A DNA stretch of 63,448 bases, counting the filler, from Bonamia ostreae (Eukaryota), in the NCBI GenBank assembly GCA_040357525.1. It is 5 parts of 5 records of this genome, joined end to end, with 100 filler letters (N's around TTAATTAATTAA, not from the genome) between each part and the next. Parts side by side here need not be neighbours in the genome. Positions count along the whole stretch, not along the records: positions 51,245 to 63,448 come from JBDODL010000017.1; 4 more parts are not named here. One strand, written 5' to 3'. Positions 3,201 through 63,448 of the stretch are shown piece after piece. The position numbers and the translations under genes are program-made. How positions within the stretch are numbered: position 1 is the first letter of the stretch; every line of letters begins with the position of its first letter. Under the pieces are notes generated by a model. The model had not been told where the DNA came from, ran no database searches, and saw only the letters and a list, made by a program, of their open reading frames with translations.

Positions 3201-4337
3201 ATTTTTGATAATAACGATTCAAAAAATGTAAAAAAATGTAAATATAAATCGATTCAAAACAAAAAATTTGAATATTAACAAATACAAATTTCTAAAAAGG
3301 ATCATTGTTAACGGATAAATTATAAAAAATAATCCCTTTCAAAAAATAAATAATATAATGACAGAGTTTTTATATCAATCGCAAACAAATAAATCTTAAA
3401 AATGTAAAAAATCATAAAAATAAATGTAAAAACGAGAAATCAAAAAAATCGTAAAAATGAAAATTCGTAAAAACGAAAAATCTTAAAAATAGTAAAAAAA
3501 ACCGTAACAACAAAAACATCCCAACAAGGTCGCAGTTTTAGAGGGCAAACTAAAATACGGTACAGCCTTTGGCAACGAACAAATCTCTGACACCTGCGAA
3601 GCCCTGTTAAAACACGGCTACAACTATTCCGGCAAAGAATTGTTGTACTCCGGCATCACCGGAGAAGCCCTCGAGTCGTTTATTTTTATGGGGCCGGTCT
3701 ACTACCAGAAATTAAAACACATGGTCGCAGACAAAATGCACGCCCGTGCGCGGGGGCCAAAGACAACATTGGTGAGACAACCCAGGGAAGGTAGGTCGAA
3801 AGAAGGGGGGTTGAGACTGGGAGAAATGGAGAGGGATTGTTTGATTGCTTACGGAACTTCGATGTTGCTGCAAGAGCGGCTCTGTTTTTCGTCGGACAAG
3901 TACACCGTCTTGGTTTGCAGAGTTTCTATTTACGATTGTTCTATGTAACAGTAATATGTTTGGAATCGATTGTGATTTTTTAATTTGTATTGATGTGTAC
4001 TTGTCAGACATTTAATAATATGGAATAAGGATTGCGGCATGATGGTATATNNNNNNNNNNNNNNNNNNNNNNNNNNNNNNNNNNNNNNNNNNNNNNNNNN
4101 NNNNNNNNNNNNNNNNNNNNNNNNNNNNNNNNNNNNNNNNNNNNNNNNNNTGTACTTGTCAGACATTTAATAATATGGAATAAGGATTGCGGCATGATGG
4201 TATATAAAGAATGGTGCAATCTGTGCAAGAAGAAGACAGACATGGCTATGCTAACAATTCCCTACGCTTGTAAACTGCTATTTCAAGAATTGATATCAAT
4301 GAACATTGTCACCAAAATTCGATTGCGAAACGAGTAA
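225..4337 (+). CDS. POLR3B: RNA polymerase III second-largest subunit, multi-exon, 5' partial
   Basis: Motifs [81 protein letters not shown] across spliced exons; [13 protein letters not shown] and [10 protein letters not shown] favour the Pol III paralogue. Two 100-N gaps lie inside introns. Confidence 0.93.
1950..2085. repeat. Intronic 48-bp tandem repeat (two near-full copies plus a partial one) next to a gap
   Basis: ttttttgtctttaaaactcgaaaaagaaattgtccgccattttctaaa repeated. Confidence 0.85.
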
Positions 4338-12023: not shown

Positions 12024-12579
12024 ATGTCTGAAGAAATCGAAGTGGATGCAAAATTGTCAGAAAGAAGACAGTTGACACTAACACAAGAAAAAGAGCGCCA
12101 ACGGTATAGGAAAATAAAGAAAACCGCGGAAAAGGAAAGGAGGGCGGCTGAGAAGACGAGGAGAATCACGCAGGTTAATGTCACTTCGTTTGACAAAAAC
12201 TTGAATCAAGACCTAAATTCGTATTATTGCGCATTTTGCGGGGCCTTCGCTATCGTCATGCGTTTCAATATCATTTTTAGAAACCGAACTTTCTAATATC
12301 CCGAAAAGGGTCAAACAAAATGGAGGAGCTTTCGCTATTTTGAACGAGAAGCACGAATTCAAGCTAGAGTTGGATAGAGGTGAAACAGTGCACATAAAAA
12401 GAGACGCTGGTTTCGAACGACAATACCTGTACGCGTGCAAAGGATGCAAATTGCCTATCGCTTACAGATGCAATAGTTTCGGAGAAAAACTAACCGTGCT
12501 CTATATTCTTGGCGATGCTCTGATAGATGATCCTTCTAGAATAGAAGAAACGATTTCCAGATATAAGATTAAAGTTTAA
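12024..12579 (+). CDS. STEEP1: STEEP1/CXorf56 (UPF0428) homologue
   Basis: YYCAFCG...IPKR...GFERQYLYACKGCKLPIAY; a 19-nt intron at 12262-12280 joins the two ORFs in frame. Confidence 0.8.
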
Positions 12580-13924: not shown

Positions 13925-16903
13925 CTATTTACTAAAAATAATCGTTACAGAAATTCGGCAAAATATAAACAAAGAAGTCAGAGGTTGGATGACTTGCCAT
14001 GTTCTCAGCATATTTCTCCCCAAATCCAGATAAATCGCTCCGATTACCGCTTCAACGAAATCCCCGCATTTTTTCGGATGACGATTTTTCGATTCGTTCA
14101 ATATAACTTTAACGTTTTTCAAACTTCTTTTAAGTCCGCGATTTCTATCTTTTTCGAAACTTGTTTCGACCGGCAAAATGTTTTCGATTCCGCTTTTGTT
14201 GCGGTTGTAAAGAGGTTCTAAGCTCATCAAGAAGTTCGGTTGTCTAGTTTTATTATCCCATTTGCCAACTTTTATTTTTTGTGTCATTTTAAAACAGTCA
14301 AAAATTTTTCTGATTGGACATCAAAAACATCTTGTAAACAAATTTTTCCATTCGAAAGGATTCAAAAGTTTCTGCCAAAGAATCGTTGCAGACAAGTTCG
14401 ATCCTGGCTTCAGTCAGATCTTCGGGCGATGTGTTAGGCAACACATAAAATAGTTTCCGAGTGCAAAGAAAGTCGAGCACGCTGTCTCCCAAGAACTCCA
14501 AAAGTTCGTGATTTTTAGAACTTGACAGTCTTTCGCCTTGATAAATGGCTTCCATTGCGTACTGTTTATGTCTAAAACAGTAATTTAGCTTTTCTTCCAA
14601 ACTTTGAATTTTTTTCGCCATCTCAACATTCTCACGATCTTTTTGTTGCAATAAAATGCGAAAATCATTTTAACAACAAAAAGCAAAACCTTTTTTGGGA
14701 ACTTGAGACAGAAGACAAAAACCGTCGTCGATCGATGGTAACTCAATCTCTGAGCCAAACCACTTCAAAACTTCTGTCACAGCCTCAAATCGCGATTTTT
14801 CGTTGTTGCTGCTAAGAAAGGTAGCTCCAAGAACAGCTTCCACCAGATCAGCAATTTGCTTTTTTGTTACGATCGGATTTTCCACTTTAAATTTTTTGTT
14901 GATGTTTTTGACGAAGCACGGAGGAATATAATCTTTCCTTTGAAACTGACTTATTATAGAATAGTTATAAATTTGGTGCTTTTTCCCGTATTCTAACAAA
15001 GATGTATTCGATATCAAATCTTTTCGTCTTTTTAAATTTGCAAATGAAAAAGAATAAATAAAATTTACTAAAAGCAAAAATTAAAATTTGCAAATAAAAA
15101 AGCAATTTGTAAATTATAAAGAACAATTTGCAAATTAAAAAAAACTTTTCCGTCAAATTTCCTTCTCTAAAAAATTCTGTATTCTTGAACTTGCAGAACA
15201 AATAATCTGTCGCCAGGTACTTCAGAACACTGTCCCCTAGAAATTCCAACAATTCGTAATTTCTAAAGTTATTTGCGACAGAAAAGGTCATCGCTTCCTC
15301 CAAAAGAGACAATGAAACCGGAACGGGCAGTTTCCTTAGAAATCTCTGTACTGACAGAGAGTTTTGTAATCCCCAAATTGTCGACACAACGTCTGGCATT
15401 TCTGTGACTAAATTGAGTGGAACGGGATGCACTTCGCATAATTCTTGCACCAAATTTAGTGTCGGTGGTACATGTGATTTTGCCACTGAAGGAGGTATTA
15501 GTACACTGTGAGCTCTTGGATGTATTTGTCTTGACGTGAACAGTTCCAACTCTGGGTGTTTCAATGTTATCCCAAACCTATTTTTATTTAGACATTTTTA
15601 GTTTTATTTGGTTTTATTTCAAAATAGATTATCGTTATCTTTTTTTAAATTAAAATGATTATTCTCTTGTCTTCAATAATTTGCTTATTTTTTAAGTAGA
15701 AAATTTTAATTTTGCCAAATTTACGAGATCGATGTTTTTCTAATACTAAACTTAGCACAAAATTATTTTCTTCTCAATTAAAAATATTATTTTTGTAAAA
15801 TCAGGATTTTGCAATTACATTTTAAACGGGATAATTTACAACAATCACCGATAAAAATTTTAAATCAAACTCGCTTTTGAAAAAGCTATTCCAACTGGCT
15901 CCAACTTTGGCATTTTCATTGTCGCATTTTGAAAAAGCGCTAAGATTTTGCTGAAACTTTGTGAAGGTGTACAAATGCTGTTCCTGTGTATTGTAGATGG
16001 TTGTTAGCACTAATTGGTCAAAAGGAATCCGGTTTTCGCTATTTGACGGTTTCAGGTAGTCGACAAAATTTGTTTTTCCGTTTTTTACGGTTTCGTTTAT
16101 CTGTTTTATTGTTATAGCGATTAGAGCACTTTTTGGATAATAAATTTTGTTTTTTAGTAAATTGTCTTTGCAAACAAGTTTGTCTATTTTTTGTAAATTT
16201 TGTCTTTATATATTTACGAATTTTGTCTTTTAGTAGATTCATAAATTTATCATTTTTCGTTTAAACAAATTTATGACAGACATCCAGAAATTGGGAGTGA
16301 CAGAGTTAGTACTCAACTTGTAACTTCAACATTAAAAGACATTTTTAGGTTTAGCATTAAAACTCTGTCGATGCAGCTCCAATCGACACTCTTTCTTTCA
16401 TCCAAGGGCACAACCAAAAACATTGGAGCGTCCGAATCCATCAACATCTCGGGATGTATTCTCGCGTGACTCAGTAAATCGTTCAGAAAACAGTGCGCTG
16501 TTTTAATACGTTCGATCTGCTTAAAATTGAAGATCTGCGCACCCCGTGGCACAAACTTGGCCACAGCGTCATTATTAGTGTTGGGGATATCGACTTCTTT
16601 TGTGTTCAAATAAACGTCGAAAGCAATCTCCGGTTCTTCTATTTTTTGCTGCAACAAGATGGCGAAAGAGTCCATAGTTTCGATCTGTTTCTCTGTCTTT
16701 GGCTCAAAAACAATGTTATAACAAAAAAGCTGCATCTGTTCTTCGCCGACGAAAACACTTTTACTATATTCTATGTGATCTTTTGGATTTTCTACAGCTT
16801 TTTTGGAGATTTGTTGTCGTTTTGCGCGATCGCTCATGTATCCCCACGAACACGTGCCTTTAAACTCGTCTGGCACTGCATCTTTCGTTCTGTTCATTTT
16901 CGG
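13925..16903 (-). CDS. Dicer-like ribonuclease core (platform, PAZ-like, RNase IIIa, RNase IIIb)
   Basis: Two RNase III signatures with acidic residues intact: NYELLEFLGDSVLK / IADLVEAVLGA and NHELLEFLGDSVLD / CGDFVEAVIGA. Upstream platform-like segment (FLVVPL...VDWSCI). No C-terminal dsRBD visible. Confidence 0.9.
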
Positions 16904-22579: not shown

Positions 22580-23011
22580 TTACTTTTTTCGTTTCTTTTT
22601 GCCTTTGGTCTTTTTCGTTGATTTGTTTTTTTCCATTTCTAGTCGTTTTTTATAAATCTCCAAATTTGGCAATAACTTCCCAATCTCTATTAACAGTTGT
22701 CGTCCTTTAAATTATTTAAATAACGATTTTTTATTGTCTCATCGATTAAATCGCCGTCTCTTTTCAATTCGACTCTAATTCTGCCCACCGATAAAAAATC
22801 TCTGCAGTAACTTTTTTTCTTTGACATTTATTCGAAAAACTTCTACTTTGTGCTCAAATTTGAGTTGCTTTAAAGCTGTGGATATTTCGCTGGTCCTGAC
22901 GTCTGGAACACAATATTTCAGTGCGACTTTTCTTCCCTCTGATATTTTCTTGCGACTGTCTAGATAAGGCAAATATATGCAATTCCATTTTTTCGAATTT
23001 TCATCCTCCAT
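22580..23011 (-). CDS. SRP19: Signal recognition particle 19 kDa protein
   Basis: WNCIYLPYLDSRKKISEGRKV, KSYCRDF...GRIRVELK, Lys-rich tail; introns of 22 and 20 nt. Confidence 0.9.
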
Positions 23012-26074: not shown

Positions 26075-26299
26075 CCAGCAAGATTTTAGCCATGTAATCT
26101 TTACTGACGATTGTGTCATTAAACTGATGATTTGGTCCTCAAATTTGACAGACCTTAACCCAATCGAATATTTTATCACCATTTCGAAGAAGGTTGTTTC
26201 TTTTATGAATGTGGCTAAATGCAACTTGTCGAGAATTGAAAAATAGAGACAATCTACATTAATTTCAAATTATGGGAACAACTAAAAAGATAAAATTGT

Positions 26300-28802
26300 T
26301 TACTCTTCAATTTGAAAAATGTCTATTGATTGAAATTCTGAATCTGAATTGATCGAATTTCTGTTTCTGCGACATTTTTTTGTCTTTGGTAATTTTCTGA
26401 AAAAGCACTTTTTGTTTCGATACAATAAATATACTGAAACAATCAAAGTTGTTATTGTAATTAAAGATAAAGCGATTACCACAACATAAAAAGTCGTTGT
26501 TTTTCTACATTTTGGCTTTACTTGAAATCCTTCGAATAAGCAAATCGCTATGCCTTTCCTCTTTTTTTGGTGAGACTGGTGAAAAAGTTTGCAACGATAA
26601 TGGCAATATCCATTGTTTACACAGCCACTGATGATTGATCCATTTTCAATTTTCTTCAAATTGCATTTGTTTGTGACCGGGTAAGTACGGATATGGGTGA
26701 TTGAAATTGACCCGTTGTCCGAACAATGCAGATTTTCTGAGTAGGTAACACTCGTTTCATATTGCATGAAAAAGTTTTCTTTGGCTCTCACTGTGCAATT
26801 GCCAAAGAACCGATCGATTCCATCTTGATCACATTCGGAATAATCTAGTGATTCGGTAGTTGTAAGTGTTGGTTTTCGACAGCCTAAAACTTTTAATTTC
26901 AAACTTTTTTGAACAGACACGTTGTGTAAGTCTTGATCATACAAATCATTACAGACTAGAATTTCGTTTTCCACAATCTGGCCGTTTTTCAGAAAACGAT
27001 AATTTGGTGAAGGATGCAAATCACATGTTCCGGCAAAGCTACTATTTTTTGACTTACAGTTCACTTCAGTAACTTTGCTGTTCTCCTTAAAGATGGGAAA
27101 TTTACATACTTTGATTTTTTCTTAAAAAACAAGTATCGATTTTTAGATAATTCTTATCAAATTCGCCATTTTCTAAGCAATGTAACGTTAGTTTTTCAAG
27201 TAGAAAGTTTCCTTCTACAAAAACGTGGTTTTTCGTTAAATTAATTTCGCAGATGCCATAGAATTTATCATCAAGGTATGTGCAACTGGGGTTAAATTCA
27301 ATCGCATCTTTTTTATTAGAATTAGGTTTTGAGCATCCTTTAAAGATCTGAATTGAAGATGGAATTGAATTTCCACTTTTTGTGCATTGTACATTCATTG
27401 ATCTTTCGAATTTGTTTTCTGAAGTCAAAATCTTATAACTTGAACTGACACTGATAACACAACCATCAAAAAAGTATTCGCCTCGGATGATGCACGCGTC
27501 AGAATACTTTAGAACTCCCTTGAACTCCGAGAAAATGTATAGTGGACAACCGGTTACAGTATCGAATTTTGTAGTGATCAGGCCATATTTGTTGCAATCG
27601 ATAGATTTATATTTAGAGTAATCAGAATTCGTTTCAATGAACTGAATAGGGAGATAAGATTCGAAGACGCACTCGCCAAAAAAAGATAAATCTTCTTTTT
27701 CACACTGTTCCGAAGGATTAAGATAAGCTTCGTGAGAGCATGATTTTACAACAATGTCACACAATGTCAGATAGTTGAAATTTGTGAGAAAGATGTATTT
27801 CGAAAACGATGAGCCGTGTTTAAACCTATAACCTTTTGAAACAAGAAGAGTGCATCCGTTTCTATAATAATTCTCCACGCTCTCGCAGTTTTGATGTGTG
27901 AATTTTATTGCTTCGTCGTAGCATTTAGGAATTTGCAAAACTTTTTTTGGTAATAAAAACATAATATTCGTGTGAAACCAATTTTGCTGAAGCTTTCATC
28001 ACAAGCTATATTTCTTAAGTACTTGAAATTTTTCTGATATACAACTAAATGATTCGCAGATTTTAGTAAATGGCAAGTACCATCAAACAATTTCCCGTTA
28101 CCAACAGATTTGCAATCATCTTTAAACAGAAAATCATTTTCAACGACAATGTCTGGAAACTCGCATCCTTTTAAGATTTTCCAACCTTCTTCTCCTGTTA
28201 AGCTTCCGTTTTTGTCACAGATCAAAAACAGAGCGTCTTGGATTTTATCCCCGTTCGCGAAAAGAAAGTGCTTTGTAGCTAAAACTTGACAGCTTTCGAC
28301 AAAATAACGATTCAATCCATCTTTTAAGCAGTTTGAATTCAAAGTATATTCATCATTGTTGAAAGGTACTTTACAAGCTTTATTTTAAAATGAATAAGAA
28401 CCTATTACAAATTGAGTTGTGTAGAAATTTTTGGGGCTGCTGCAACTGATTAATTTTTCAAGAGCATTGTTTTGTTGGTAAAAGATGGAATTAGAGTTGA
28501 TTCGACAACTCCCAAAGAAGTATCTATCACCAATAAGACCACACAAATTGTCGAAAACATTGGAGTAGACCGAGCATACTTTTAAATACAATAAGTTTAT
28601 AACGTGGGTAAGGATCTTGAAATGAATTCGGACTCAATGAATTGTAAGAGATTGAGTTTAAAGTTTCGAAACATTCTTCTTGGAGACTGTTTAGCAAATT
28701 TGTTGAGAAATATCGACCATCCTTTTTTATTAATTTTCCTTCTGGACAATTGGTTGCCAATACAAAGGCGAAGTAATACGAAACAAGTAGAAAAGACTGC
28801 AT
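26300..28802 (-). CDS. Cys-rich repeat type-I membrane protein, paralogue A (sushi/CCP-like juxtamembrane domain)
   Basis: Signal peptide MQSFLLVSYYFAFVLA, repeated C...C...FFG.C...C modules, ENG...CHYRC...C...PKC, TM FYVVVIALSLITITTLIVSVYLLY, short basic tail. Confidence 0.75.
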
Positions 28803-44226: not shown

Positions 44227-47200
44227 TTACTCGTTACCAGCTCTGAGGAGCTTATAAAACGAACCCTTTTTCTCAATTAAATCAGAATAAGTGCCGAATT
44301 CATCTTTAGTGCCTTTTGATAAAACGAGTATGAAATTTGAAAATTTGACGGCACTCAAACGATGAGATCTTTTTACATCTTTTGGAAAAAACATCGAAAG
44401 AGTCGATCTTTGTGCATTCTTTTCTTCTATAAGAGAGTTAATAGCGTCTTGTACTATCTTTTCTGATTCTGTATCCAACGCACTTGTGGCTTCATCGAAT
44501 AACAAAACACGAGGTTTCTTTATCAACGCTCTTTTTATAAATACATATTTTTATTTTGCATTCACAGTTTAAATCTTTGTTTTTATATTTTTCTTATTCT
44601 AACGTGCTCGCGTTAGAATCCCAGTGTTGTCGCTTACAAACTGGAGATGTGGTTTACCCAAACTCCTACGTTACTGGGGTTGCCCTAAAAACCTCAGACC
44701 TAGAATGTATGGTCGGAGTCAGGTCGGGTAGTGAGCCCCAAATACCAAATTAAGAATAAATATGCTAATATTAACAACAATACCTTGCAATAGCAACTCG
44801 CTGTTTTTGACCTCCGGACAATTTTGTTCCACCAATTCCACAATTTGTTTCATACTGGTTTGGAAAACTTAATATATCGTTGTGTATGTTCGCTTTCTTT
44901 GTAGTCACATTTTTTATTTTTTGGTAATAAAAATAAATAATCTTTAAAACTTTTGCAGCCTCTATAATTTCTTCGTCAGAAGCATCCAATTTACCAAATC
45001 GAATGTTTTCTTTAATACTTCCATTAAACAAAGTCGGTTCTTGAAGTACCTTTGTATTATAATATGTGGTGTACAAAGCGAATATGTAAATTAATCGATT
45101 TTAAGAAACAAGTCCTATTGATTCTCGAAGAGAATGAATATTTATATCTTTGTATGGAACATCATTTAAATATAACTCGCCTTTATTTGGTTTATAAAAT
45201 CCAAGCATCAACGAAACAATCCTTTATTAAGTTTTAACAGGTTTGAAGATTTTATAGGACAAATTTTATATACTAAAAACAATATAAAAACGTTGATTTT
45301 CCTGATCCACTAGATCCAACAACCGAAATAGAAGTGTTCTGTTTCAATTTGAAGCTGAAATTATCCAAAACTTTTTCTTTTTGACGTGCCGGATAGAAAA
45401 AATCAACTTCTTTGAATTCAATATCAAATTTGCCATCTTTTAGAATATCTTCAACTTCGTAGCCACCTTTTATCTCATCATTGTCATCATCTATTACGTG
45501 AAAAATTTTGTCTTTAGCTATTCTTGCTTCTTTTATATCAGGTGAAAATTCAATAGCGTATCTCTTTATATGAATGCAGAATTATTTATGATCTTTTGTA
45601 GAGATATTTATGATTTTACTTAGCTTGTCGTTTTATATACAAAAAATGAAAATACAATCAAAAATAAGAATATAAAAATATCATTAAGAATATAAAAATA
45701 TCATTAAGAATATAACAAAAAACAAATCCTGAAACACCCAAAATCGCCCCGAACGCAGAAGAAAGCATTTGGGTGAAGGAGATTTGGCCAGATTGAATTA
45801 ATTTGGAACCGTAATAAAATGCCAACGCATTAATAAAATAATAAATTAACTCCACCAACCCAAATGGCAATGCCGCTATCACCGACTTTTTGAAGAAACG
45901 GGAACTGTGTTCTTCATAACATTTCTCATATCGCTCCACAAAACTGTTTTCGGCTGCGAAAGCTGCGACCGTTCGAATATTATCAAAAACTTCTTTTGAA
46001 AGTTTGTTCGAGTTTTTTATTGCCTTTTCAGAACTTTTTTCTATACTGGAAGAAGCCAGCATACTAAGAGCTCCAGCGATGATTAATAATGGAGTAGATG
46101 CCAATACTGCTAGTCCCAGTTTGTAAGAAGAAATTAAAGATATTATTATTCCAGTGACTAAAGTTGAAATTGCCGAGACTATAGAAGGTAATATTCCTAC
46201 GGTAACATCGTTCACTTTTGTTGTCTCAGTTTCAAGGAGATCTGACAATTTGCTTATCAAAGATAAATTTAATTTTTATCTATTCAAAATATTGCGATGA
46301 TAAAACTAAAATTTACAAACTAAAATTTACAAACTAAGATTTACAAAACTAAAATTGGCCAAATTATTAAAAACGATTGGTCATTAACTTCTTGGTCAAA
46401 CCATTCCATCTTTTTACTAACAACTGAATGGAAAGACATTTCCCTCAATTTTTTGGTCAATGTCTCACCAGAGTATCCATAAAAATAACCGCTACCCAAA
46501 TCAGACAAAAAGTTGATTATTCCAAGTGCAAAGAAAGCCCCTAAATAAACTAAAGAATCTTTTTCAATAGAAGATTTGTCAATTTTAGAATATGTTTCTA
46601 AAATATTGGTGACAAAAATCGCAAGCATTGGAAACGTCATGCCGGACAAAGTTGCAGTTAACATTCCTGCCATTATATAATACTTTTCGTGTTCACTCAT
46701 TTTAATTAATCTCCAAAGAGAGACTTTTGGGATTTTACCTTTTTTTTGTTTTGAAACGTTGTGTCCTATTTTAAAGCTTTCTTTTTTTGAGTTTTGAGAT
46801 GCTACACTTATTTTTCCATACTGTTGTTTTTCGGCGCTTGTTTCCGTTAATTTCATGTTTGTCTTGTTATTAAAAATTTGTTATTGTTGCCATTGGAATA
46901 TGTAAAATTAATATTTATAATGACTAGTATTGACAATAACAAAAACTTGAAATTTCACTAATGAAGAATATTCTCCTCTTTTTTGAATCAATTCTTTGTG
47001 GTTTCCCTTTTCCACAATTTTTCCGTTTTTCATAACAAAAATTAAATCCGAATTTTTAATCTGTATTATAAGCAAATTTAACTGTTGAAAGTCTATGTGC
47101 TATAATCAACGTAGTTCTTCCTTTCATTACCTTTTCTAAAGCTGCCTGAACTGTTTTTTCCGCTCGCGTATCTAAAGCCGATGTGGCTTCATCTAAAATA

Positions 47201-51144: not shown

Positions 51145-51244
51145 NNNNNNNNNNNNNNNNNNNNNNNNNNNNNNNNNNNNNNNNNNNNTTAATTAATTAA
51201 NNNNNNNNNNNNNNNNNNNNNNNNNNNNNNNNNNNNNNNNNNNN
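51145..51244. other. Artificial contig spacer
   Basis: N44-TTAATTAATTAA-N44. Confidence 0.97.
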
Positions 51245-51367
51245 CCCTTTTCGTTATCTTAAAGTAAAAATATATGGGCTATATTAAAGTGGCACGGGGG
51301 TGCATATCCAGTAAAATTGTAAAAACGGTTTTAATTTAAAACCGTAATTTATAAAACAAGCCCAATA

Positions 51368-51882
51368 ATGAAAGATTACAACTTTAAAACTCTCAACGCT
51401 CTCAATATTCCTTCCACCAAAATGCGCTTTCAGGGCTTCGTTGTCAAAGGTTTCCAGAGAGGAAGGAAAATGGGAATCCTCACAGGTTCTGTTTACCATT
51501 CTATCAGCAAACATCGATCCCAACTTGTTGGACAAAGCTCAGCTGGGCTTGTTCGAGAATGGCGTTTACGCAGGATGGGCAAAGGTGGGAAACGGCACTG
51601 TACACAAAGCGATGATCTCGATAGGATATAATCCCTTCTTCAAAAACGAGTCTAAAAGCCTTGTTCGATTTTAATTTCCAGGAAACGCACATTCTGAACG
51701 ACTACGGCAGAGACTTTTACGGGGAAAAGCTCACCGTCCTGATAGTTGGCTACATTAGAAAGATGATGGACTTCTCATCGCTAGATGAACTCATCCGCTT
51801 CATCCGCAAAGACATCGAGTTGGGGCGAAAGTCCCTGTCGCAAAACGTCTTCGAAAGTCTCAAGAAGCAGATCGAAGACTAG
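51368..51882 (+). CDS. RFK: Riboflavin kinase
   Basis: GFVVKGFQRGRKMGILTAN, GVYAGWA, SIGYNPFFKN, ETHIL...DFYG...GYIR; introns 51486-51507 (22 nt) and 51663-51681 (19 nt). Confidence 0.93.
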
Positions 51883-51974
51883 TAAACATTTACCGATTTT
51901 TGGCCTCTCACCAGCTGTCTTCTGAACAGATGGAAGATTAGTAAACGGTCAGCAGCTTGAAGATGGAAGATAGT

Positions 51975-54106
51975 TTATAACATGTATCTCAGCACCCCCT
52001 TCTCCGCCGATATGAACTCTCTCTCAAGTAAATACCGAACTCTGGACTCCAGGTGGCTCTGCTGAACGGCAAATTCCGTCGGCCCGAAACGCTCCAACAG
52101 ATCGGACTGCTTGATCTCCCCGCGATCCTTCAGAAGAGATATTATTCTCGAGTCGATCTACGATTGAGCAAATAACGATGTTGTCTTTCTCCAGTCCCGT
52201 CCGGAGCTTGCCCAGAACTGCCTTCTTGTTGGGCTTGACGCCGATCGTTCTGGGCACGGACAAACTTTTCTCGTCTTCGAGCGCCGAGTTGAACCTGAAG
52301 ACGTCATCGCTTTTCACCGAACCGCCTCCGGGTATTTTGGCGAGAATGCTCTCCTTCTTCCCTTCCGAGCTCTGGCAGAGCGATGCCAATCCGCGCTTCA
52401 AGTTCTCGTCGTCTGCAATTGAACAATCAAACCGACGCGGAGGGTCTCTTTGATCGAAGAGTAGCTGATTTGCTCGTACTCGTTGAAGAGGCACAGAACG
52501 CACGCTTGGGTCGCGTCCACCGCCAACTCGACTTTGCCCTTCTTCAGCGCCACCTTCAACCTGCACCGGTCGTTGCCCGGGCTCCACGCGACCACCTTGT
52601 TTTCCAGCTTCGCGCTCTTCTCGGAGCACATCGCCCGCTTAAATTTTGCTGAAAACTATCTGCTCCGCCAGCTGCGGCAGAACGCTCCCGACGTCGACCG
52701 CGGCGTCCGAGCAGGCGGGCCATATTTTCCGCCCGAAAACTTTGAGGCGCAGAAAGCTTTTCACGCCGAAGACCTGCTGCGAGGGTTTGCAGAAGAACTC
52801 GTCGAGCATGTCGTTCAAGCGCGCGACGTAGTTGGCGCCGCACTCCGCTTTGAGGACCCCGAGGACCCGCCTTTCCACCTCGCTGGCGCGCGGGCTTTCG
52901 GCGGGCGCACCCATCAGCCGGAAGGCGAGGCTCGCGCTGTACGCGAACTCGAACTCGCTTTTGTGGCTGAGCAGGCGGAACAGTGGGACCATCTCTCCGA
53001 TCGTCTGCGCGGCGTCCTCCCGGGCGATGCTTTCTTCGACGAACTGCGACTTACTGACCTAACCTTTATCAGAAAGCCCACGCACTTGTCGACGTTCCGG
53101 TCAATGGCGGCTTTCATGGACTGCTTTATCCCCGCTTCCAGCGTTCTGTCGCGCCTGGTGCGCTTCAATATCCGCGTCGCCAGTTTCTGTCTTTACTCAA
53201 ATTACCTCCAGGGCCAAGAGCGCGTCGATGGAGTCGGACGCGCTGAACAGGAGAGCCGCGCGTTCCTGACGTTGGACAATGAAACCAGGACAAACTCGGA
53301 AACTCTCTTGACGAACGCCTCTTTGGACGAGTTCTCGTAGCAGAGCTTGAAGAGCCTTTCGACCGCCTTCAGATCGCCCGCTTCGATCAGAGCCACGAGG
53401 TGCTTGTTGACGGCGCTTTCCAGCGTGAGTTTCCTTTGCCCCAGCAAGGCCGCGCTGTTGTTCTCGCCCACGAGAAACTGAATCTTTGTCTTGGCGTGTG
53501 TTCAAAACGTAAACGTCGATGCTCTCTTCGGCGGAATCTATCGCGGCCGCGGCCTTCGCTTTCTTCCGGCTGTCGTGGGCCTTCGGCGTTCTGCCGTGGT
53601 CCGTGATTGCCTCTACCGCGACTTGGCAGATTGTGCTCGTGTCGATCCCGAGCAAGTTGCAATGACCGATGCACTTTTCCAGTTTCCTAAAGTTCGCTCG
53701 GTTGCAGTCGAATAGCAGACTTTTTTGGTTTTCAGAACCTTTTGAAGTGGATTCGAAGTTCTCGTTTCAGCTCCGCGGCGAAGGAGTCGCAATTTCTGGC
53801 CAGTTTCCCCGTTTCGTTGAATCCCTTTTCCACAATGTTTCCAGGGGAAAAGAAAAAGTTGCCGGCAGGCGCTTCCCTGTGCTCTGCGAACAATTGCTCG
53901 GCCTCTTTTAGCGATTGTTCGTACTCGGAGAAGAGTTTGAAAACGTTTTTCTGAAATGCAAACAAAACTTTTTCGGCGAAAGGCCCTTTGTAGAAATAGA
54001 TGTTGCTAATAAAATTTTCTATTTGCGTTGCGTTGAAGTTGTGAGCGTACTTTAGGTGCTCGAGTATCTTCTATTGTTGTGGATGAACCTTTTTCTTCTC
54101 GGTCAT
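51975..54106 (-). CDS. Divergent cullin-family protein, multi-exon
   Basis: YSASLAFRL...LKAECGANYVARLNDM; spliced C-terminus IDSRIISLLKDR...YLLEREFI resembles the neddylation winged helix; start is approximate. Confidence 0.75.
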
Positions 54107-55084
54107 GTTTTTGCTATTGGCAAATTTTTCTGTTATGTCCGCCATTCCTTTTTTATCGACTGCGAACGGCTCATGCTCCATTTTGGACAGTTCATGAATT
54201 TTGATCCGAATAGGATTTTTGTAATTCACAAACACCATTTTTAAAGCTTACGGGAAATAATTATATAAGATTTATTTAATTTCGAATCTCATTATATATG
54301 CAAATTTAAATTTCCTAAAACATTCTGGTAACAAGAGTTACTACTTTATGACCAAACTCTTAGATATTCATTCAATGTGATGCTTCCGCGAAAGTGTCAC
54401 AGATGCGGAACTTATATTATACTAAAAGACAAACTCTGTTCACCTCATATTTTTTTGGTTATTCACCTTTCGCCGCTCCATGTATTGTTTCAAGACATAA
54501 GGAATTTCTTCCTCAAGTTTGACTTTCCTCATTGAAGAAGGGACGTTTCTTTTCTTTAAAGACTCGGAGAAGCCTAGAAGCGTTCTAGAAAAGTAACCAG
54601 AAAATAATAGAAGTAGAAAAAGAAGAATTGATAAAATAATGAATATTCATTAGAAATGTTACTCGAATAAACGAGATTTAGACTATATTAATTTTAATAA
54701 GATCATGATCATCGCGAGAAGCAATGATTGTTATGGATCAGAAAACTTGAATCACTCCTGAAAAAGAAAAGTTTGTATTATTTAAAGGTTGCGAAAGTCT
54801 CATTACAAACAAACAAATAGAGAATTGAATTAAAATGGTTTTATATTTCAATTTAAAAATATGAGTTGGTCAGCAATAAAGGAATTCTGAGAGCAAACAT
54901 CTTTTTTTTATTTTCGCCTCTTTGATGAAAGGGAACTCCTAAGAATTCATAGCAGGAACTCTTATGCTTCTACTGGTGTCTGATCTTAGCGCATATCGGA
55001 CTCAGTATCGAAGTGCAATGATACACCGATTGTTTTGATAATAATAGAAATTACAATTTGTTGAAATAAATTTAATTCGTTGCA

Positions 55085-58000
55085 TTAAACATTGGTTGAG
55101 CTCAAATGAGTTCGTGTGCTTTCGGTACTACCCTTGATGTAGATAAGACCAAGCGACTCGTTGCGGTTTAATTCCGACATACTCTCTTCTGAAACGTTCG
55201 CGATATCCTCTAAAGTTTGTCTAAATGGACTCCCTTTCGAATCCAAAATCAGCGCTACCGATTTAGAAAATCGCACCCGCATTCTGTTGACAGTGACAGA
55301 GTTTATTCTTTGCAACGACTTTGTTTGTATCGACTGGATGAGAGCGGGTGCGATGTAAACTTTTCCGACGACATCTCTTGCTAAAATTGGCAACAAAACC
55401 TTTCCCTTTCAAAAGCAGCACCTTGGAACCAACCAACTCATCGGTATCCGACTCAAATTTCCTAAAAGTAGACGACAAGCAGATCTCTCCCAACTTAACA
55501 TGGTCAGACTCAAGCTCCAACCTTGTTGTGAAAAGCATCCGCATCATCATGAAGGCTGCACACTTCCATGCTATCTCCTCTGTAGTTCTTTCGCGCAGAA
55601 TGGAATGTATTACAGTTTTTGGTACCTTGAGCACACTTGTTGTCGTCTGGGCCTTGAATCATTAACACAATGCAACTCTGCAAGTGGATATAGACGTGCT
55701 CTCTGCGAGGGAAGCCCACAAGTTGATGAGACTCCCTGGTCCGTAAATTCGCTCATAGTGGTCACTCGTGTTGATTTTGACAAGCCCTCGCACAATCTTA
55801 AACATTTAAATATTTACCAGAAAAAAGCTATTTTTGTTCTTTCCTTCAGTGTAAAGAGTTTCTTCTTCCGAAAAAACTTTGTACCTTAGTTTTGCAAACA
55901 GAATGTGTTTGGTTTGCTCATCAAAAACACTGATAAATGGCAAGTTTGAGAACAGAAGAAAAGTGTTTATCTTTGCGGGGATTTTGTAGCAGCTCCCCAC
56001 TTTGTGGATAAATGTGTTGACACGGTCTGTCATTTCCTCGCATTCGGAAGTCTGGATGATCCCGTCTTTGCGCAGACGGTTGATGTTTTTAATGTCGCTG
56101 TTAAGCACAAAGACACTCGCTTTTTGGGATTGGATTGATTGATAAATCTCCGGGAACGTTTTCTGTGAAATTAGACAGATTAAACTTGTATTCTGTGTAT
56201 TTCCAATTCTGCCAATTTTTCCGCTGCCTTTATCTCGGCAAAAACCTTGTCGGTCAAATTGGATTTCCATTCTGGGAACTTTTTGACGATGATTCCCGTT
56301 CTTCGATTGCATCAACAAAACCTGTCGGCTGCAAAAATAAATGCGGTTGAGAGTTGAACAGTCTCCAGTATTATCCCGAAGATGCTTTTGTGCGAGAAAT
56401 TTTTGAAGAAACGTTTTGAGTGCAGAAATTGGTACCATCGAGGGTACTTAAAGTGTTTCTTTATGCACGTCCACTGTGATTGTTGTAATCTGAAACCTGC
56501 TCTTTGATATCGTTGCAGTCAATGGATGCCTCTGCTGCGTCGTTCAGAATGTTGTAGGTGTGCGAATTTATGAGCCCGTCCTGGTGCTTTAGTGTTGTGT
56601 AACTTCAACCTGTTTCCAATAGAAACTTTTCATGGAGCAGATGAATCTGTAGCGGATATTGGATTCGACAGAGTGCTCGTTCTGCCCGCCGATTCCGTAA
56701 TTTTCCGTCTTCAGTAATCGCGAGTAATCGGGGATACTGTTCCTGAGCTCTAACCAGTTCGCACCACTATTTTAATTCGAATAAACGTGAAGTGGTTGTT
56801 TTGGCTCAAAACATTGACCAGATGATCCGATTTTTTAGCCAAATGTTCCAACGAAGATTTTATTAGAAAGTCAGACTGGTATAGTGACGACTTTATCTTC
56901 AAAAGTTTGAGTACATACTGAATAGTACTGCCGTTGATGACCTGGATTGTAGTGAGAAAAAAAACCAGTGTCAGGACGACAATTCCGCAGATGTGAAAGA
57001 CCATTTTTTCGCGAATGCTTTTGTCTATTCCGTTCAAGTACTCCACTTCAAGCGAGAGAGCAAGTCCTATCGCTCCTCGAACCGAGCCGTACCAGAGCAC
57101 ACACGCCGTTTTCCAATCGTAGTCAGCGCCCAAAAAACGCAAAACGGGGTGCAGAACAAGTAGCTTTGGTTAAAATCAAAACTGTGATGGCTCGCGTGAT
57201 TTGGATCCAGACATATATCGCCAGAAGATATCCGAACTCAAGCCACGACACGTTGCTTGCGTTGATCGTCTTGTAGGAGACGATGATCCCCGAGATCAGA
57301 AAAATGAGGCACTTCGAGAAAAACTCGAGCAGCTCCCAGAAGTGGTTCAAGTTTGCAAGGCCCTTTAATTATAACCCAAACTCTGGTTGAAAAGCGCGCC
57401 TTGTTGCGAGCTATCACCAAGCCCATAGCCACGGTAGCGAGCACTCCAGAAGATTTGAGCAAATCTGCGACTATGAAGTCGAGATTGATGCCGATGAACG
57501 TGGCCGAAGTTTCGAGCAATTCGTCGTTCAAAACGGTCGTTATGTAGAGGCTGGTTATGAATCCGAAGATGGCGCCGATCAAGGAACCAGAAAGTAGCAC
57601 CAAGCAACGGAATATGTAAAACGACGCCGTCTTTGATTTTTGGGAGTCGATTATCATCAATGTCAAGACGTCGAAAAGAATTATCGCGGAAGCGTCGTTG
57701 AACAGCGATTCCGTTTCAACAACGGTTGACAGATTTTGAGAAGCCTTTATCTCGCGAAGTAACGTCACGACCGCGACGGGATCAGTTGCGGAAACGATGG
57801 ACCCGAAAAGCAGCGAGATCTTTATGTTCCAGCGACTCAAAGTCATTCTAAAAACTATGGAAGGATGTAGCTGCAGATGATGGAAGTGAGAAGAGTATTG
57901 ATGAGGACGCCTTAAGTGTGGATACGGCAAACCTGGGATTGCCAAGACGAGTGCGTGCCATTTCACGCGCATCAGAGTGTGATGATTGGTGGAGAAGACG

Positions 58001-58297
58001 CTGTAGAAAATCAGATTCGGGAGAAAAATTTGCATGAAAATCATCGGGTTCAAAGTTCTTTTGGTGAGTACGCATTAAAAACTCGATTATGTCGATAAAA
58101 GGCACTTTTCTCTTTAAGGCGATGTCTATTCCGCCAATTGAGACGCCGACGAGAAGAAGGATGACTAAGTTAGCAAAACTTAAACCAGAGAAAGGAATTT
58201 TGTTGTGAAATTTTTTGTTCAGGTGATAAACTATCACGCCAATCAACATTCCTATGAACGCCACGAAAAGCCATGACGAATCTGATGACAAGGACAT
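55085..58297 (-). CDS. SOS1/SLC9C-type CPA1 Na+/H+ antiporter with cyclic-nucleotide-binding-like C-terminal domain
   Basis: IFLPNLIF, FGSIVSATDPVAVV, ESLFNDA, SGVLATV, FWELL, GSVRGAIGLALSL; tail LFSNLPF...LYTEG...FFLV. Confidence 0.85.
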
Positions 58298-58479
58298 TAA
58301 TGTTTACGGTAAATTTTGGGAAAAACAGTTTTAAAAATTCCTAAATTGTCCCTATAAACACAGGTTTGGAATTAGAATCAAATTCCTAAATCGTTACTTT
58401 CAAGTTTGCGAGATTATTTTAATTGTTTTAGCATCTACCAACTTTTGGAATACTCAAATTTAATTATTTCAAAATGCTC

Positions 58480-59215
58480 AAATTATGTAGCTGGCACAAT
58501 ATAAACTTTTAAACTAGGAAAATAATACATTTTTAATCAACGCTGCATGTGGAGATTATTATGTTCAACAATCCTTTTGGCATATTCTATTCCTTTGAAA
58601 ATTTTGTTGATTAGCATTGAATCAGAGTTCCAGTAACTCTCTTTTGAACATTTCGAATTTTTTGATTTATTTTGCGAATTTAATGTTTGCATCTTATCCT
58701 TTTTTGGAAGCGTTTTTAAGTCAGAAGAGACGATGTTGTTGAATTTTTTTAAATTTTGATGATGCAACTTAGGTCATCGATGTACTCATTTACGATGTGT
58801 CATGTATCGCATCTATGAGAGCAAGAAGTGCTCCAGACGTCTAATACGATCTAGTTGATATTCTGGAGCGAATTGGCAGGCAAAGATCCATAATCAAGAA
58901 TCAATCTAACATGAGATTTGTACAAATGTAGTTTGCTTTTTGAGCGATGCCGCATGTTTTGCTTCACAGGTGCCCGTATATCTGACTATCTTGTGCACCC
59001 TCTATCAACTAGTTCTTTGTTTTATCATCTATCTTGCTCCAAAACGTTTCCTTCGCCTTTGTTCCAGCCGCTTTTTTTAAGTTTTTGTAGTCGCCGTAAG
59101 ACGATCACGGCTATTTTGTTGCCAGATTTTTTAGTCTTCTTTGTGCTTTGCGCAGTTTTATGCTTACTTCTCTTACTTCGTTATTCCGCCAAATTGAAGT
59201 TCCTGCTTTTGGAAT
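58480..59215 (-). mobile_element. Possible decayed non-LTR retrotransposon fragment
   Basis: Stop-interrupted frame SIWRNNEVREVSIKLRKAQRRLKN...YKNLKKA...KAKETFW resembles the LINE endonuclease-RT linker. Confidence 0.3.
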
Positions 59216-59292
59216 ACATAAAAGAGAGTTTTATATCAGAAAATAGCAATTAAGCGACAGAGCAAATTCAATCAAGCTAACTGTTTACTCGT

Positions 59293-61050
59293 TCATTCGT
59301 CCATTCTATCTTCTTTGAAGACGGAAAGCGCGGTCGCGCTGGAATCTAGCAGTGTTTCCGTGCACCAGCTCGGCATCCACTTGTACGGAACGGATTCCTC
59401 CGCGAAGCCGTGCGAGTCGAAAATCTCGCGGTACCACATGTCCTCCTTTGTCTGCGGAGTCGAATGGGAGTACAGCGCCGCCCGAGCCTCGAACCTGGAG
59501 TGGGTCACATGTTTTTCTGCTTGGGACTTGAGATAGTCCTTCCACCCGTCCTTCTCGCTCGTCCCGTCGCTCATCGCGTGCTTGGTTCGCCACAACACCT
59601 TCTCGGGCAAGAACTCGCCTTTCGCGCCGGCGAAGGCGTCTCTCAGTATTTTCTTCTCGACCCGCTGGTTCGAAAGCGGGTCTATGTATTCGGGCGGGAG
59701 CGCCAACACGAACTCGAGAAGCGAGCGGCTGAAAAACGGCAATCTGAGCTCGCAGCCGATGCTGCTCACCATCCGGTCTGCGCGCAGCCCGTCAAAGTAG
59801 GAAATGTCGCGCAGACGGTCGATCGCTTTAGTTAGGATTTTCAAACCATCGATCCTCCCAGAGAAGGGGTCGGGAGACAGCAGGTTGTACAGATACCCTC
59901 TCAGAAGCTCGTCGGCTATCTCGCCACTATAGACCACCGCGATTTCAGGGTGCTCCTTCTTCATCTTCTTCAGTCCCAGAAGCATTGCGGTGGAAGCTCT
60001 GGTCGTGGTCTGGTCCCAGCTCTCGTTAAAATAAATCGCCTCCTCGACGAGTCGGCCGCCCTTTTCGAAGTTGAAAATGTACGTCTCGTGGATGGAATCC
60101 AGGTACTCGGCGACTTCTTCTGCGGCAATCACGTCGGTGGCGCGCCGGGAGAAGCCGAAAGTGAAGGTCCGGATTCTTCTCGGCGCTAAAAGTTTCGACG
60201 CGATGGCGCAGACGAGACTTGAGTCGAGCCCCCCGGAAAGCAGAAAAGCGAATGATCTCTCTGGATTGAGCTTTCTCTTTAAGTTGTCGACCAACAGGTT
60301 TCTAAGTTGCTGGACGGCTTCGGAATAAGAGATCTCTTTGAAATCAGTACGCCTTTTCTCGGATTCGAAGTCAAAATGTTGCGAGATCTTTGCGCTTTCC
60401 AAGGCCTCCTTGTTCCCCAAAGCCACGGACCTGCTTCCCATCGATCCGGCTGGAACAGGACTAATCGTTGGCAAGAAGGACAATGGCTTTTGCTCCGAAG
60501 ACAAATAAAAGCCGCCATCTTCGTCGATCCCGTAGAAAATGGGGCGGACGCGCAGTTCGTCCACTGCGAAGACTACTCTTTGTTTTTCCGAGTCGTAGAT
60601 GATTATCGCGTACTCTCCGTCAACTCTTTTGCACACTCTCCTCATGGTCTCAACGTAAATCTCTTCTTCGGGTCTGCTCCTGTTCTCTTCGCGGATTTTA
60701 GACAAGAAGTAGATGAACAAGTTGAGGACGACTTCGCAGTCGCTATCAGATTTGCATTCGTAATTGCTCATCTTCTTCTTCAGAAATTGGGCGATTTCTC
60801 TAAAGTTGTAAATTTCGCCGTTGACGAGAGAGCAGAAGCGACCGTCGCTGGAGACGAAAGGCTGCATTCCGGCCGGAGTGGGGTCGACGACTTGGAGTCT
60901 GTGGAATCCGGTCATCACGTTGGAGTTGAAGTACTGGACTCGAGAGCAATCTGGCCCGCGGTGCTGCAGCTTTCTAAAGCGCTCGCACAGTTCTTTTTTA
61001 GCTTTGCCTCTTATTTTAAGCGCTCCGCCGTAGAAAAAAATTCCACACAT
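59293..61050 (-). CDS. ASNS: Asparagine synthetase (glutamine-hydrolysing)
   Basis: MCGIF start at 61050, HRGPD, GFHRL, NGEIYNF, LLSGGLDSSL, SGEIADE, RADR, WMPSW; probable in-frame 21-nt intron at 59826-59846. Confidence 0.95.
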   Translation of the reverse strand: MCGIFFYGGALKIRGKAKKELCERFRKLQHRGPDCSRVQYFNSNVMTGFHRLQVVDPTPAGMQPFVSSDGRFCSLVNGEIYNFREIAQFLKKKMSNYECKSDSDCEVVLNLFIYFLSKIREENRSRPEEEIYVETMRRVCKRVDGEYAIIIYDSEKQRVVFAVDELRVRPIFYGIDEDGGFYLSSEQKPLSFLPTISPVPAGSMGSRSVALGNKEALESAKISQHFDFESEKRRTDFKEISYSEAVQQLRNLLVDNLKRKLNPERSFAFLLSGGLDSSLVCAIASKLLAPRRIRTFTFGFSRRATDVIAAEEVAEYLDSIHETYIFNFEKGGRLVEEAIYFNESWDQTTTRASTAMLLGLKKMKKEHPEIAVVYSGEIADELLRGYLYNLLSPDPFSGRIDGLKILTKAIDRLRDISYFDGLRADRMVSSIGCELRLPFFSRSLLEFVLALPPEYIDPLSNQRVEKKILRDAFAGAKGEFLPEKVLWRTKHAMSDGTSEKDGWKDYLKSQAEKHVTHSRFEARAALYSHSTPQTKEDMWYREIFDSHGFAEESVPYKWMPSWCTETLLDSSATALSVFKEDRMDE

Positions 61051-61488
61051 TTGCAAATTATGATTATTACTTAACTTCTGTTTAATCTTAAACCTTTGAA
61101 AACCAACACTTGAAATGTGCAATGTGTTTTAGATTTTTTCTGATTCGCTGCAAATATGTTGGATCCAACGCTCTTTTTAGATTTATCATTCGTGCCCATA
61201 TCAACCACGAGAGCGTTTATGGAAAGCGCCCCTTCCTTTGACGTCCCTTCATTTATGGAAAATCCGAACAAAAATTATAAGAGAATGTACAATTTTAGGG
61301 ATCAAAAAATCACAAGATGTGTTATGGAAAAAGAAGGCTGCAGCTGAAAACATCAAAGAAAACAACAAAGAAGACAACAAAGAAGACAAATCGCGTCAAA
61401 ACTGAAACAGCTGAACCCGTTCCTGCGCTAAAACTTATAATCAATTGGAGAGAGGAACATAAACCCGAAAACGTTAAATTTATAAAAT

Positions 61489-62185
61489 CTATCCGCAGCA
61501 GCCGCTGTTTCCCATAAGAACCTTTTCGGTTTCCAACGAAAAGGCTTTTCTTTCGTTGACTTGTTTCATTTGAATAATGCGATTTTCCACGGCACTCGAC
61601 GAAAGTTCGTAGAACGCGTTTTGCACGTTGAAGTTATTTCTCGCGCTGGTTTCGATGTATGGAACTTTCATCAATTTGGCGAGTTGCTTATTAATCAATG
61701 TCCAAACTTTGCCTTCTTCTTCTGCAACGACGCGTTTTTCGGTCAAGTCGTTTTTGTTTCCCACTAAAAGCACTTTTGTGTTCTCGGAAGAGTGATTTTC
61801 TATTTGGCCAATCCATCTGTTTTTTACATTCTCAAAGCTTTTTCTGTTCGTCAAATCGAAGACGGTGAGGATGCAATCTGCGCCTCGATAGTACGAGGTG
61901 GTGATATTGTTGAACCGTTCTTGGCCGGCGGTGTCCTTCGGTGAAAAAGGGAAACCCAAATCTGCAGTTTCACGGTTTTGCCTTTGATTTGAATCGTTTT
62001 TATCTCAAGGTCTACGCCGATCGTAGTTATGTAATTATCGTCAAACTCTCCTTCCTAAAATTGATTTCGAAACGCTGTATCGCCTGACGAGACTAGACTT
62101 TCCGCAACTCGAATCGCCGATAACGACAAACTTGAGGGAAAGATCGCTAGGAATTAGGATAAAACTGCTTTTGTTCTCTACTCAT
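61489..62185 (-). CDS. Rab GTPase (Rab1/Rab8-like)
   Basis: [44 protein letters not shown]-terminal GCCG; four introns of 19, 19, 20 and 21 nt. Confidence 0.93.
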
Positions 62186-62588
62186 TTAATCAAGCTTTAA
62201 AATTAAAAATTTTGTAAGTTTCGTTTTAGGCCAAACAATAATGGTTTGCAATATATTTTCCTAGCTTGACAAATAGCAATGTCTAAATTTTATGCTTTCG
62301 AATCGTTAAAACAATTCGAAGGAATGCTTTTTATTAATTAAGAGTCGAAACAATTTTGATTAAATGACTTTTAATCAAAATAAAAGTTAGTAGAATGGAC
62401 CTCAATAAAAATATAAGAGACAACTAATAAATACAAAAAGTAAATGTCTCTTGTGAGCTTTAATCAGTTTGGAGATGATTTTAGTATTTTAGCAGAGTTA
62501 ATGACCCGCACAAAGCAGGTTGGCAGCCTGGTCAGTCATTTTGAACCGATATAAAAATTAAAAAATGGCGAATTCTATACGCCTTTTA

Positions 62589-63448
62589 TTACACATAGAA
62601 ACAGCCGATCAATCTTTTTCCGTTTGCTTCCGCATTGTTATCTTTGTACTCGTCGCCCAGACACAACACTTTTGACACATCCTCGCCGACTTCGATGCTG
62701 TTGTAGAACCATTTACTGTTTAGGCAAACCAGTTCGCGTGCTATGTTTTTGTCCGAGCAAACCGCATGAACTGTTTCGCCGTGTTCCGTAAACGGGGCAT
62801 TGATACTCAAATCCCCTGGAATCGCTTCATCGGTGCAACCCGTTTGGTCTTAAGTAAGACGAAAAAAACCTGTACAATTTATGTCATTAATATCGACTGG
62901 TTTGCCTTCGGGGTCGAGCAGGTGGCCACTTTTGCAGGTAAAGCTAATTCCAGCTTCTCTCGAAGCGGACACCCCGTTTATGGAAGGAAACAGATCCTTC
63001 TCCAAACAGCCAATGGTGACTTTCTCTCCATCTTCAAAAACGCCATAGGAAACTTCGCCAAACTTTTCCCCGACGAATATTTCTTCGTTGTCAACTTTGC
63101 ATTCGTGACGGGAATCGAAGTAGTTGAATTCAGTCACCTCGTGTTTGTCTGTGTTTTAAAATATATCAACCAACGCATTTTAGTTTATCCAAGTTGAAAA
63201 AGTGTTCGTGTTCCGAGACAAAATTTCCGTTATCGCATATTGCCAGAATGTATTTGTAATATTTAACACCCTTCTTGCTTTTGAAAGGATTGAATATGTT
63301 TTGTTTTGTGTTCGTGCACCGTATAAGAGCCCATGAGTTGTTTTGTGTTGGCAATAGGTCCGGATGAACTTTCCCGTTGAATTGGTCGAATTGAAAGACG
63401 CTGATGTTTTTGTTGTTCGCATGACAAGAATCTCCCAAGGGTTTCGAC
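62589..63448 (-). CDS. Cys-rich extracellular-type protein, 5' partial
   Basis: Three Cys-rich ORFs linked by short GTTT...AG introns; sushi-like Cys spacing. Confidence 0.55.

Follow-up and report, generated by a model that had tools for sequence, protein, structure and literature searches.

The window analysed here is a 63,448-nucleotide stretch of eukaryotic nuclear DNA from Bonamia ostreae that contains 13 runs of N. In its stop-to-stop frames we found Pfam domains of Rpb2, a phage-type RNA polymerase, STEEP1, an exonuclease, a Dicer-like RNase III, SRP19, SGT1/ecdysoneless, thioredoxin, cyclin, LicD, an ABCB transporter, riboflavin kinase, a cullin, a Na+/H+ exchanger, asparagine synthase and a Ras-family GTPase. 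The window holds no tRNA genes and no Rfam families, and a scan of it with Rfam, at the gathering score and at E ≤ 1, returned no snRNA. A weak match to SNORD37 (C/D-box snoRNA-like; 26290–26349, plus strand) scored 27.2 bits (gathering score, 45; E-value, 0.48) and probably arose by chance. The first 51 kb or so have a GC content of about 30%, versus 42–55% for 52–63 kb, and the jump (51145–52000) coincides with two N gaps, at 51145–51188 and 51201–51244. As very small introns starting with GTT are present on both flanks of the jump, the DNA on both sides seems to come from the same organism. The asparagine synthase frame (59296–61128, minus strand; 611 residues) has no introns in surroundings that are dense in them, and the spacer between it and the GTPase gene carries, at 61344–61402, 3.7 copies of a 12-nt tandem repeat, GAAAACAACAAA.

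The Ras-family GTPase gene is a Rab1/8/10-like gene on the minus strand (61489–62185), recognised by its reading frame, its homologues and the Pfam Ras profile. Without splicing, the frame that opens at the ATG at 62185 meets a stop after 12 codons. Excision of four segments keeps it open to a TAG stop at 61491–61489; all four are GT..AG on the minus strand, and each occurs only once in the window. Intron 1 (62147–62165; 19 nt, GTTTTATCCTAATTCCTAG), placed by the frame and by alignment of the N-terminus, interrupts a His codon 20 nt past the ATG. Intron 2 (62055–62073; 19 nt, GTTTCGAAATCAATTTTAG) was placed by the homologue profile, with Ras profile positions 19 and 22 on either side of the junction. 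Intron 3 (61936–61955; 20 nt, GTTTCCCTTTTTCACCGAAG) lies at the junction of W with DTAGQE, where the Ras profile runs from position 53 to 54, and is skipped by a contig of run X1 (see below), as is intron 4 (61687–61707; 21 nt, GTTTGGACATTGATTAATAAG), which is in frame and free of stops. The exons are, in order, 62166–62185, 62074–62146, 61956–62054, 61708–61935 and 61489–61686, the last including the stop, so that the 618-nt coding sequence is divided by four introns.

The 205-residue product of the spliced gene shows the P-loop and the motifs WDTAGQE, GNKND and ETSAR, and has CC at its C-terminus; the G1–G5 motifs of the Ras family (PF00071) and the C-terminal prenylation cysteines are all present. 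Using exon 4 as the query we retrieved 120 homologues, the best of them (Rab1/8/10-like) with 66% identity, and built a profile from the 75 that are 195–215 residues long. The alignment of the spliced product with this profile covers 2–204 of 204 at 265.9 bits, with no insertion or deletion at any junction, and the Pfam Ras profile likewise continues over exons 2, 3 and 4 (positions 1–19, 22–53 and 54–159, respectively). Keeping intron 1, 2 or 3 brings a stop after 12, 41 or 98 residues, respectively, while keeping intron 4 adds an insertion of seven residues and lowers the score by 12 bits, to 253.9. Removal of intron 1 is needed to supply the start codon, because the frame of the P-loop, if left unspliced, lacks an ATG downstream of the stop that precedes this motif; once the intron is out, residues 2–7 match the Rab N-terminus. 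No protein of at least 134 residues retrieved with exon 4 exceeded 66% identity, which weakly fits a gene that is unannotated or mis-annotated in public sets. The first-pass annotation of this DNA had proposed four introns of 19, 19, 20 and 21 nt in the Rab gene, and the exact sites, the restored frame, the end-to-end alignment and the absence of introns 3 and 4 from the contigs bear it out. The span it gave, 61686–62165, encloses the right segments but starts one base too early, the correct start being 61687.

We aligned contigs of run X1, a public run whose kind was entered by guess as ‘RNA?', to positions 51245–63448 only; 67% of sampled words of 53500–63448 are present in the run, whereas a second run, X2, contains almost none. 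Eleven segments of 19–24 nt in this region are skipped by the contigs, Rab introns 3 and 4 exactly among them. After realignment of the deletions, all 11 could be placed as GT..AG, ten of them starting with GTT (seven with GTTT) and one with GTA. The other nine are distributed over the region as follows. The cullin gene (51978–54247) has one of 19 nt at 53720–53738, on the minus strand. An unnamed minus-strand gene has five within 55381–56496: 55381–55399 (19 nt), 55653–55676 (24 nt), 55797–55817 (21 nt, the one that starts with GTA), 56163–56185 (23 nt) and 56474–56496 (23 nt). The last gene of the window, also on the minus strand, has two, at 62849–62869 (21 nt) and 63149–63170 (22 nt). Thus 10 of the 11 are on the minus strand, which is the strand of the genes according to the Pfam hits and the gene model. 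The remaining segment, 54517–54537 (21 nt), is on the plus strand; the 870 nt around it, which separate two minus-strand genes, have no convincing open reading frame, and it may be an intron of a UTR, of a short gene or of a non-coding transcript. The first-pass annotation had named cDNA that keeps the segments as the observation to look for against splicing, and the contigs of run X1 lack Rab introns 3 and 4.

An interrupted frame could in principle be that of a decayed pseudogene, or of a Rab gene expressed by translational frameshifting, in which GT..AG ends fit by chance. Beyond the interruption itself, nothing favours this reading, and it is contradicted by contigs that lack introns 3 and 4 exactly, by the end-to-end Rab alignment that the four removals produce, and by the occurrence of the same class of segment in many other genes; we regard it as exceedingly improbable.

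Does run X1 reflect RNA? Its depth goes from 0 to 26,488 between neighbouring bins and adjacent genes and falls to 9.85 in the spacer at 62234–62640, and its contigs are gene-sized. This is the depth pattern of transcripts rather than of genomic DNA and supports the guess that the run is RNA. Since the kind of the run had only been guessed, one may suppose instead that it is DNA of a processed nucleus, from which the segments were removed at the DNA level in the manner of the internal eliminated sequences of ciliates. Besides the depth and the size of the contigs, such elimination is opposed by the ends of the segments, which are GT..AG on the coding strand and not of the TA type, and by the use of TAG as the stop codon of the Rab gene. 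We consider DNA elimination very improbable. The asparagine synthase gene, with a contig depth of about 20,000, is among the most deeply covered parts of 51245–63448. No contig row of run X1 covers Rab intron 1 or 2, and 56943–58977 has no depth. Two contigs break at intron boundaries, one stopping at 62054, at Rab intron 2, and another starting at 56322, beside a predicted intron (56301–56321), which is only a hint that spliced and unspliced molecules coexist.

We then analysed how widespread the class is. Junctions in two further genes are spanned by contiguous stretches of a Pfam profile: a 22-nt intron in SRP19 (22819–22840, minus strand; SRP19 positions 1–47 and 49–80) and a 19-nt intron in riboflavin kinase (51663–51681, plus strand; Flavokinase positions 36–72 and 74–123). 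In the Na+/H+ exchanger gene, a 19-nt intron (57363–57381, minus strand), at a site where run X1 has no depth, likewise lies between contiguous stretches of the Na_H_Exchanger profile (positions 43–246 and 254–304). The 19-nt intron of STEEP1 (12262–12280, plus strand) comes from the model alone; the STEEP1 profile begins at its position 24 directly after it, and the upstream exon by itself has no Pfam match, for which reason we count this intron as a prediction. Of the genes for which the first-pass annotation had claimed the same class of intron, SRP19 and riboflavin kinase are thus upheld by contiguous profiles, and the cullin and the last gene of the window by RNA contigs, but the tiny introns of STEEP1 and ABCB are predictions.

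Does the window as a whole show the GT..AG rule? Two counts were uninformative. When segments joining open frames of at least 30 codons were classified by their boundary dinucleotides, GT..AG was not singled out and came about 15th, as most of what this count captures is overlap of open frames; and the longest open paths stitched under 31 boundary rules did not discriminate, since AT-rich rules can join anything. At 398 junctions of adjacent open frames, GT..AG ranked first of 256 boundary pairs (334 observed versus 221 expected, a ratio of 1.51), the margin of this first rank being modest. A first-round gene model, based on codon bias and the GT..AG rule alone and allowing introns of 15–45 nt, predicted 74 introns, which we compared with all 8,238 GT..AG segments of 15–45 nt in the window. 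The predicted introns started with GTT in 58 cases (background 42%, p=4e-10) and with GTTT in 42 (background 19%, p=9e-13), and 39 of them were 18–24 nt long (background 23%, p=3e-8), with a mode of 19–22 nt.

After training on its own output, the model predicted 9 of the 11 introns that are supported by RNA. Conversely, 11 tiny introns that were predicted by the model fall within contig pieces; the nine that keep a distance of 50 nt or more from any contig end are all skipped by the contigs, and the remaining two lie 2–3 nt from such an end. The resulting catalogue comprises 75 tiny introns, of which 11 are supported by RNA, 5 by profile contiguity and the others by the model only, so that it is mostly model-based, with later rounds trained on their own output. 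Its lengths are 18 nt (1 intron), 19 (18), 20 (13), 21 (13), 22 (12), 23 (5), 24 (4), 25 (2), 26 (1), 27 (3) and 29 nt (3); thus 56 of the 75 are 19–22 nt long, and the shortest of those based on evidence is 19 nt. Taken together, the four Rab segments and about 70 similar ones in the window are very probably genuine GT–AG introns of the spliceosomal type, close to the lower size limit of such introns.

We analysed the signals in the 16 evidence-based introns and in the 39 first-round introns of 18–24 nt, which are free of bias from a position matrix. The common features of the tiny introns are a donor GUU(U) and an acceptor [A/C/U]AG, with A the commonest base at −3. On the donor side, T occupies +3 in 15 and +4 in 11 of the 16, and G occupies +5 in four; the canonical donor GTRAGT, complementary to the 5′ end of U1, is not what these introns carry. 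On the 3′ side of the same 16, A is found at −7 in 10, and pyrimidines at −6 in 13 and at −5 in 14, while position −3 is A in nine, C in four, T in three and never G. Of the 39 first-round introns, 26 have A at −8 and 22 have it at −7 (p ~1e-3). On the strength of this enrichment, which is modest (10 of 16), we read the A at −7 or −8, with the two pyrimidines after it, as a putative branch site. The interior is about 40–41% T, 38% A, 14% C and 8% G, with no polypyrimidine tract. Folding of the 16 introns with 10 nt on either side revealed no structure signal (mean z +0.14, p=0.46 for hairpins). The view of the first-pass annotation that the introns have no consistent branch or polypyrimidine signal is thus correct for the polypyrimidine tract, but overlooks a weak A at a fixed distance (−7/−8) and the pyrimidines at −6 and −5.

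The signals described above are not sufficient to specify an intron, as high-scoring segments stay unspliced. In 5,260 nt of contig pieces, with both strands counted, 10 of 100 GTT..AG segments of 18–24 nt are removed. A matrix score of at least 3 is reached by eight removed segments (of the 11 spliced) and by nine that are not removed. A segment at 59826–59846 (21 nt, in the asparagine synthase frame) scores like the best introns, and yet no contig skips it, although the depth there is about 21,000.

Putative longer introns that begin and end like the tiny ones were placed by profile coordinates, in parts of the window outside the region aligned with run X1. In Rpb2, an A-rich intron of 699 nt (2830–3528, plus strand; GTTTAA...CAACAAG) separates positions 185–281 from 279–373 of the Rpb2_6 profile. 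The phage-type (mitochondrial) RNA polymerase gene, on the minus strand, has two, of 239 nt (5821–6059; GTTTTAC...AAAAAAG) between RNA_pol positions 76–187 and 189–266, and of 112 nt (6443–6554; GTTAAT...GAAAAG) between positions 1–75 and 76–187. ABCB has one of 122 nt (46253–46374, minus strand; GTTTTT...GATAAG) between ABC_membrane positions 2–94 and 102–268. A gene model with an intron limit of 800 nt fused all genes lying on the same strand, and one of its calls, 1036–1160, contradicts a Pfam hit; we therefore accepted its long introns only with Pfam support. All four longer introns consist mostly of tandem repeats with periods of 9–27 (about 27 nt for that at 6443–6554). In the ABCB intron, a 14-nt unit is repeated in tandem about 3.8 times and, together with the preceding G, reads as a complete GT..AG mini-intron of 15 nt. 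This suggests that introns have grown by internal tandem duplication. If the longer introns are real, the machinery is not limited to one length.

These results bear on how the introns are recognised. The first-pass annotation had suggested a reduced or modified spliceosome working largely by length, and a machinery that recognises introns mainly by a length of 18–24 nt, with almost no internal signals, would explain the narrow mode at 19–22 nt (56 of the 75 catalogued) as well as the lack of a polypyrimidine tract in an interior made up largely of A and T; the related mikrocytids, moreover, have a reduced spliceosome and introns of 16–17 nt (PMC10245619). However, nine-tenths of the look-alikes of the right length in contig-covered DNA are kept, the homology-inferred introns of 112, 122, 239 and 699 nt have the same ends, A and pyrimidines are positioned near the 3′ end, and the range of lengths is wider than in mikrocytids or Stentor. 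Introns are not confined to a window of 2–4 nt at the lower limit: they measure 19–24 nt when supported by RNA, 18–29 nt in the catalogue and 112–699 nt when placed by homology. Recognition mainly by length is thus unlikely. Since the longer introns share the ends of the tiny ones and most look-alikes are kept, sequence and context appear to be read, not length.

For recognition by sequence and context, introns of about 19 nt would have to pack three signals: GUUU at +1 to +4; an adenosine 7–8 nt from the 3′ end that would act as the branch point and that two pyrimidines follow; and the terminal AG. The lower limit may then be set by the room that the spliceosome needs, some 11–12 nt from donor to branch and 7–8 nt from branch to acceptor, and the shortness of the introns would more likely come from a deletion bias working against this steric floor. 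Donors with U instead of the usual purines at +3 and +4 would require either a U1 snRNA with an altered 5′ end, as in Entamoeba, or recognition mostly by U6. U at +2 to +4 can still pair or wobble with the ACAGA box of U6, as argued in the Entamoeba preprint, according to which GUUUGU donors could even pair better with this box (bioRxiv 10.1101/2022.06.08.495308).

A more specific proposal is that donor recognition was remodelled as a whole. Either the 5′ end of U1 co-evolved with GUUU, independently of Entamoeba and as the second such case, or U1 was lost, with U6 and U5 defining the donor; the floor at about 19 nt would be a fixed donor–branch–acceptor geometry, and internal tandem duplication would have turned mini-introns into the longer introns. 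We hold this full proposal only tentatively and consider it rather less probable than not.

Paramecium donors are GTA. The two organisms differ in that the donors here are GTT and the Rab frame here is terminated by TAG; they are alike in being intron-rich with tiny introns, those of Paramecium having a mean of 25 nt (bioRxiv 10.1101/2021.08.05.455221). Another comparison is with the mikrocytids (Mikrocytos mackini and Paramikrocytos canceri; Ascetosporea), parasites of the same rhizarian class as B. ostreae that also have extremely short spliceosomal introns. According to PMC10245619, mikrocytid introns are all 16 or 17 nt long, number only 224 per genome and are highly conserved in sequence; none was found in genes for transporters or metabolic enzymes, and the snRNAs found are U2, U4 and U6 only. 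In contrast, the introns described here are 19–24 nt long with a tail to 29 nt and some of 112–699 nt, have variable interiors, occur at very high density and are present in genes for a Na+/H+ exchanger (supported by homology), an ABCB transporter (predicted by the model) and riboflavin kinase. The same account quotes 18–21 nt for the introns of chlorarachniophyte nucleomorphs and 15–16 nt for those of heterotrichs, in agreement with the sizes that the first-pass annotation had used for comparison. The nucleomorph introns resemble those of B. ostreae in size class and high density, but here the lengths vary more and the DNA is not that of a relic nucleus but ordinary nuclear DNA with Rpb2, Dicer-like, ABCB, cullin and Na+/H+ exchanger genes.

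In Stentor coeruleus, the introns measure 15–16 nt, start strictly with GUA and branch at the A in position 10 of 15, and U1 is the canonical ACUUACCU (PMC9505925). Its introns share with those of B. ostreae the GT..AG ends, an adenosine at a fixed distance (here the putative branch) and the lack of a strong branch consensus; those of B. ostreae, however, start with GUU(U), have their A peak at −7/−8 and are longer and less uniform in length. Entamoeba has GUUUGU(U) at the 5′ ends of its introns and a co-evolved U1 with ACAAAC, about 88–90% of its introns keeping G at +5 and U at +6, and is intron-poor (bioRxiv 10.1101/2022.06.08.495308). The likeness lies in U at +3 and +4 replacing the usual purines of the donor; unlike Entamoeba, B. 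ostreae has no preference for G at +5 or U at +6, so that its donors do not follow the GUUUGU(U) consensus, is intron-dense in this window and has far shorter introns.

Very short introns are known from few other lineages, and they appear to be undescribed for the lineage of Bonamia. In the literature on Bonamia and haplosporidians we found no description of tiny or GTT-start introns; the search took in the text of PMC11069148, whose supplements could hold intron lengths. Each of the handful of lineages with ultra-short introns shows the minimum of sequence that a spliceosome needs, and the combination seen here, of high density, a mode at 19–24 nt and a GUU(U) donor unable to pair with canonical U1, is unreported in the literature searched. 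As putative longer introns ending alike occur in the same genes, a single genome would allow a direct test of how the sequence of the donor, the co-evolution of snRNAs and the minimal intron length are connected.

The introns also matter for annotation. Gene catalogues made without a minimum intron length below 20 would have many proteins truncated or split, and such models would distort the inference of gene loss in oyster pathogens; it is plausible that standard gene finders mis-annotate the B. ostreae genome, as the first-pass annotation had expected. The comparative genomics of B. ostreae, with funannotate/Augustus annotation, describes ‘canonical introns' at about two per mRNA (PMC11069148), versus the four introns in 618 nt of the Rab gene. 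With respect to gene content, the Dicer-like gene of the window (13964–15573, minus strand) encodes two RNase III domains, whereas PMC10245619 reports Dicer and Argonaute as not identifiable in the mikrocytid M. mackini.
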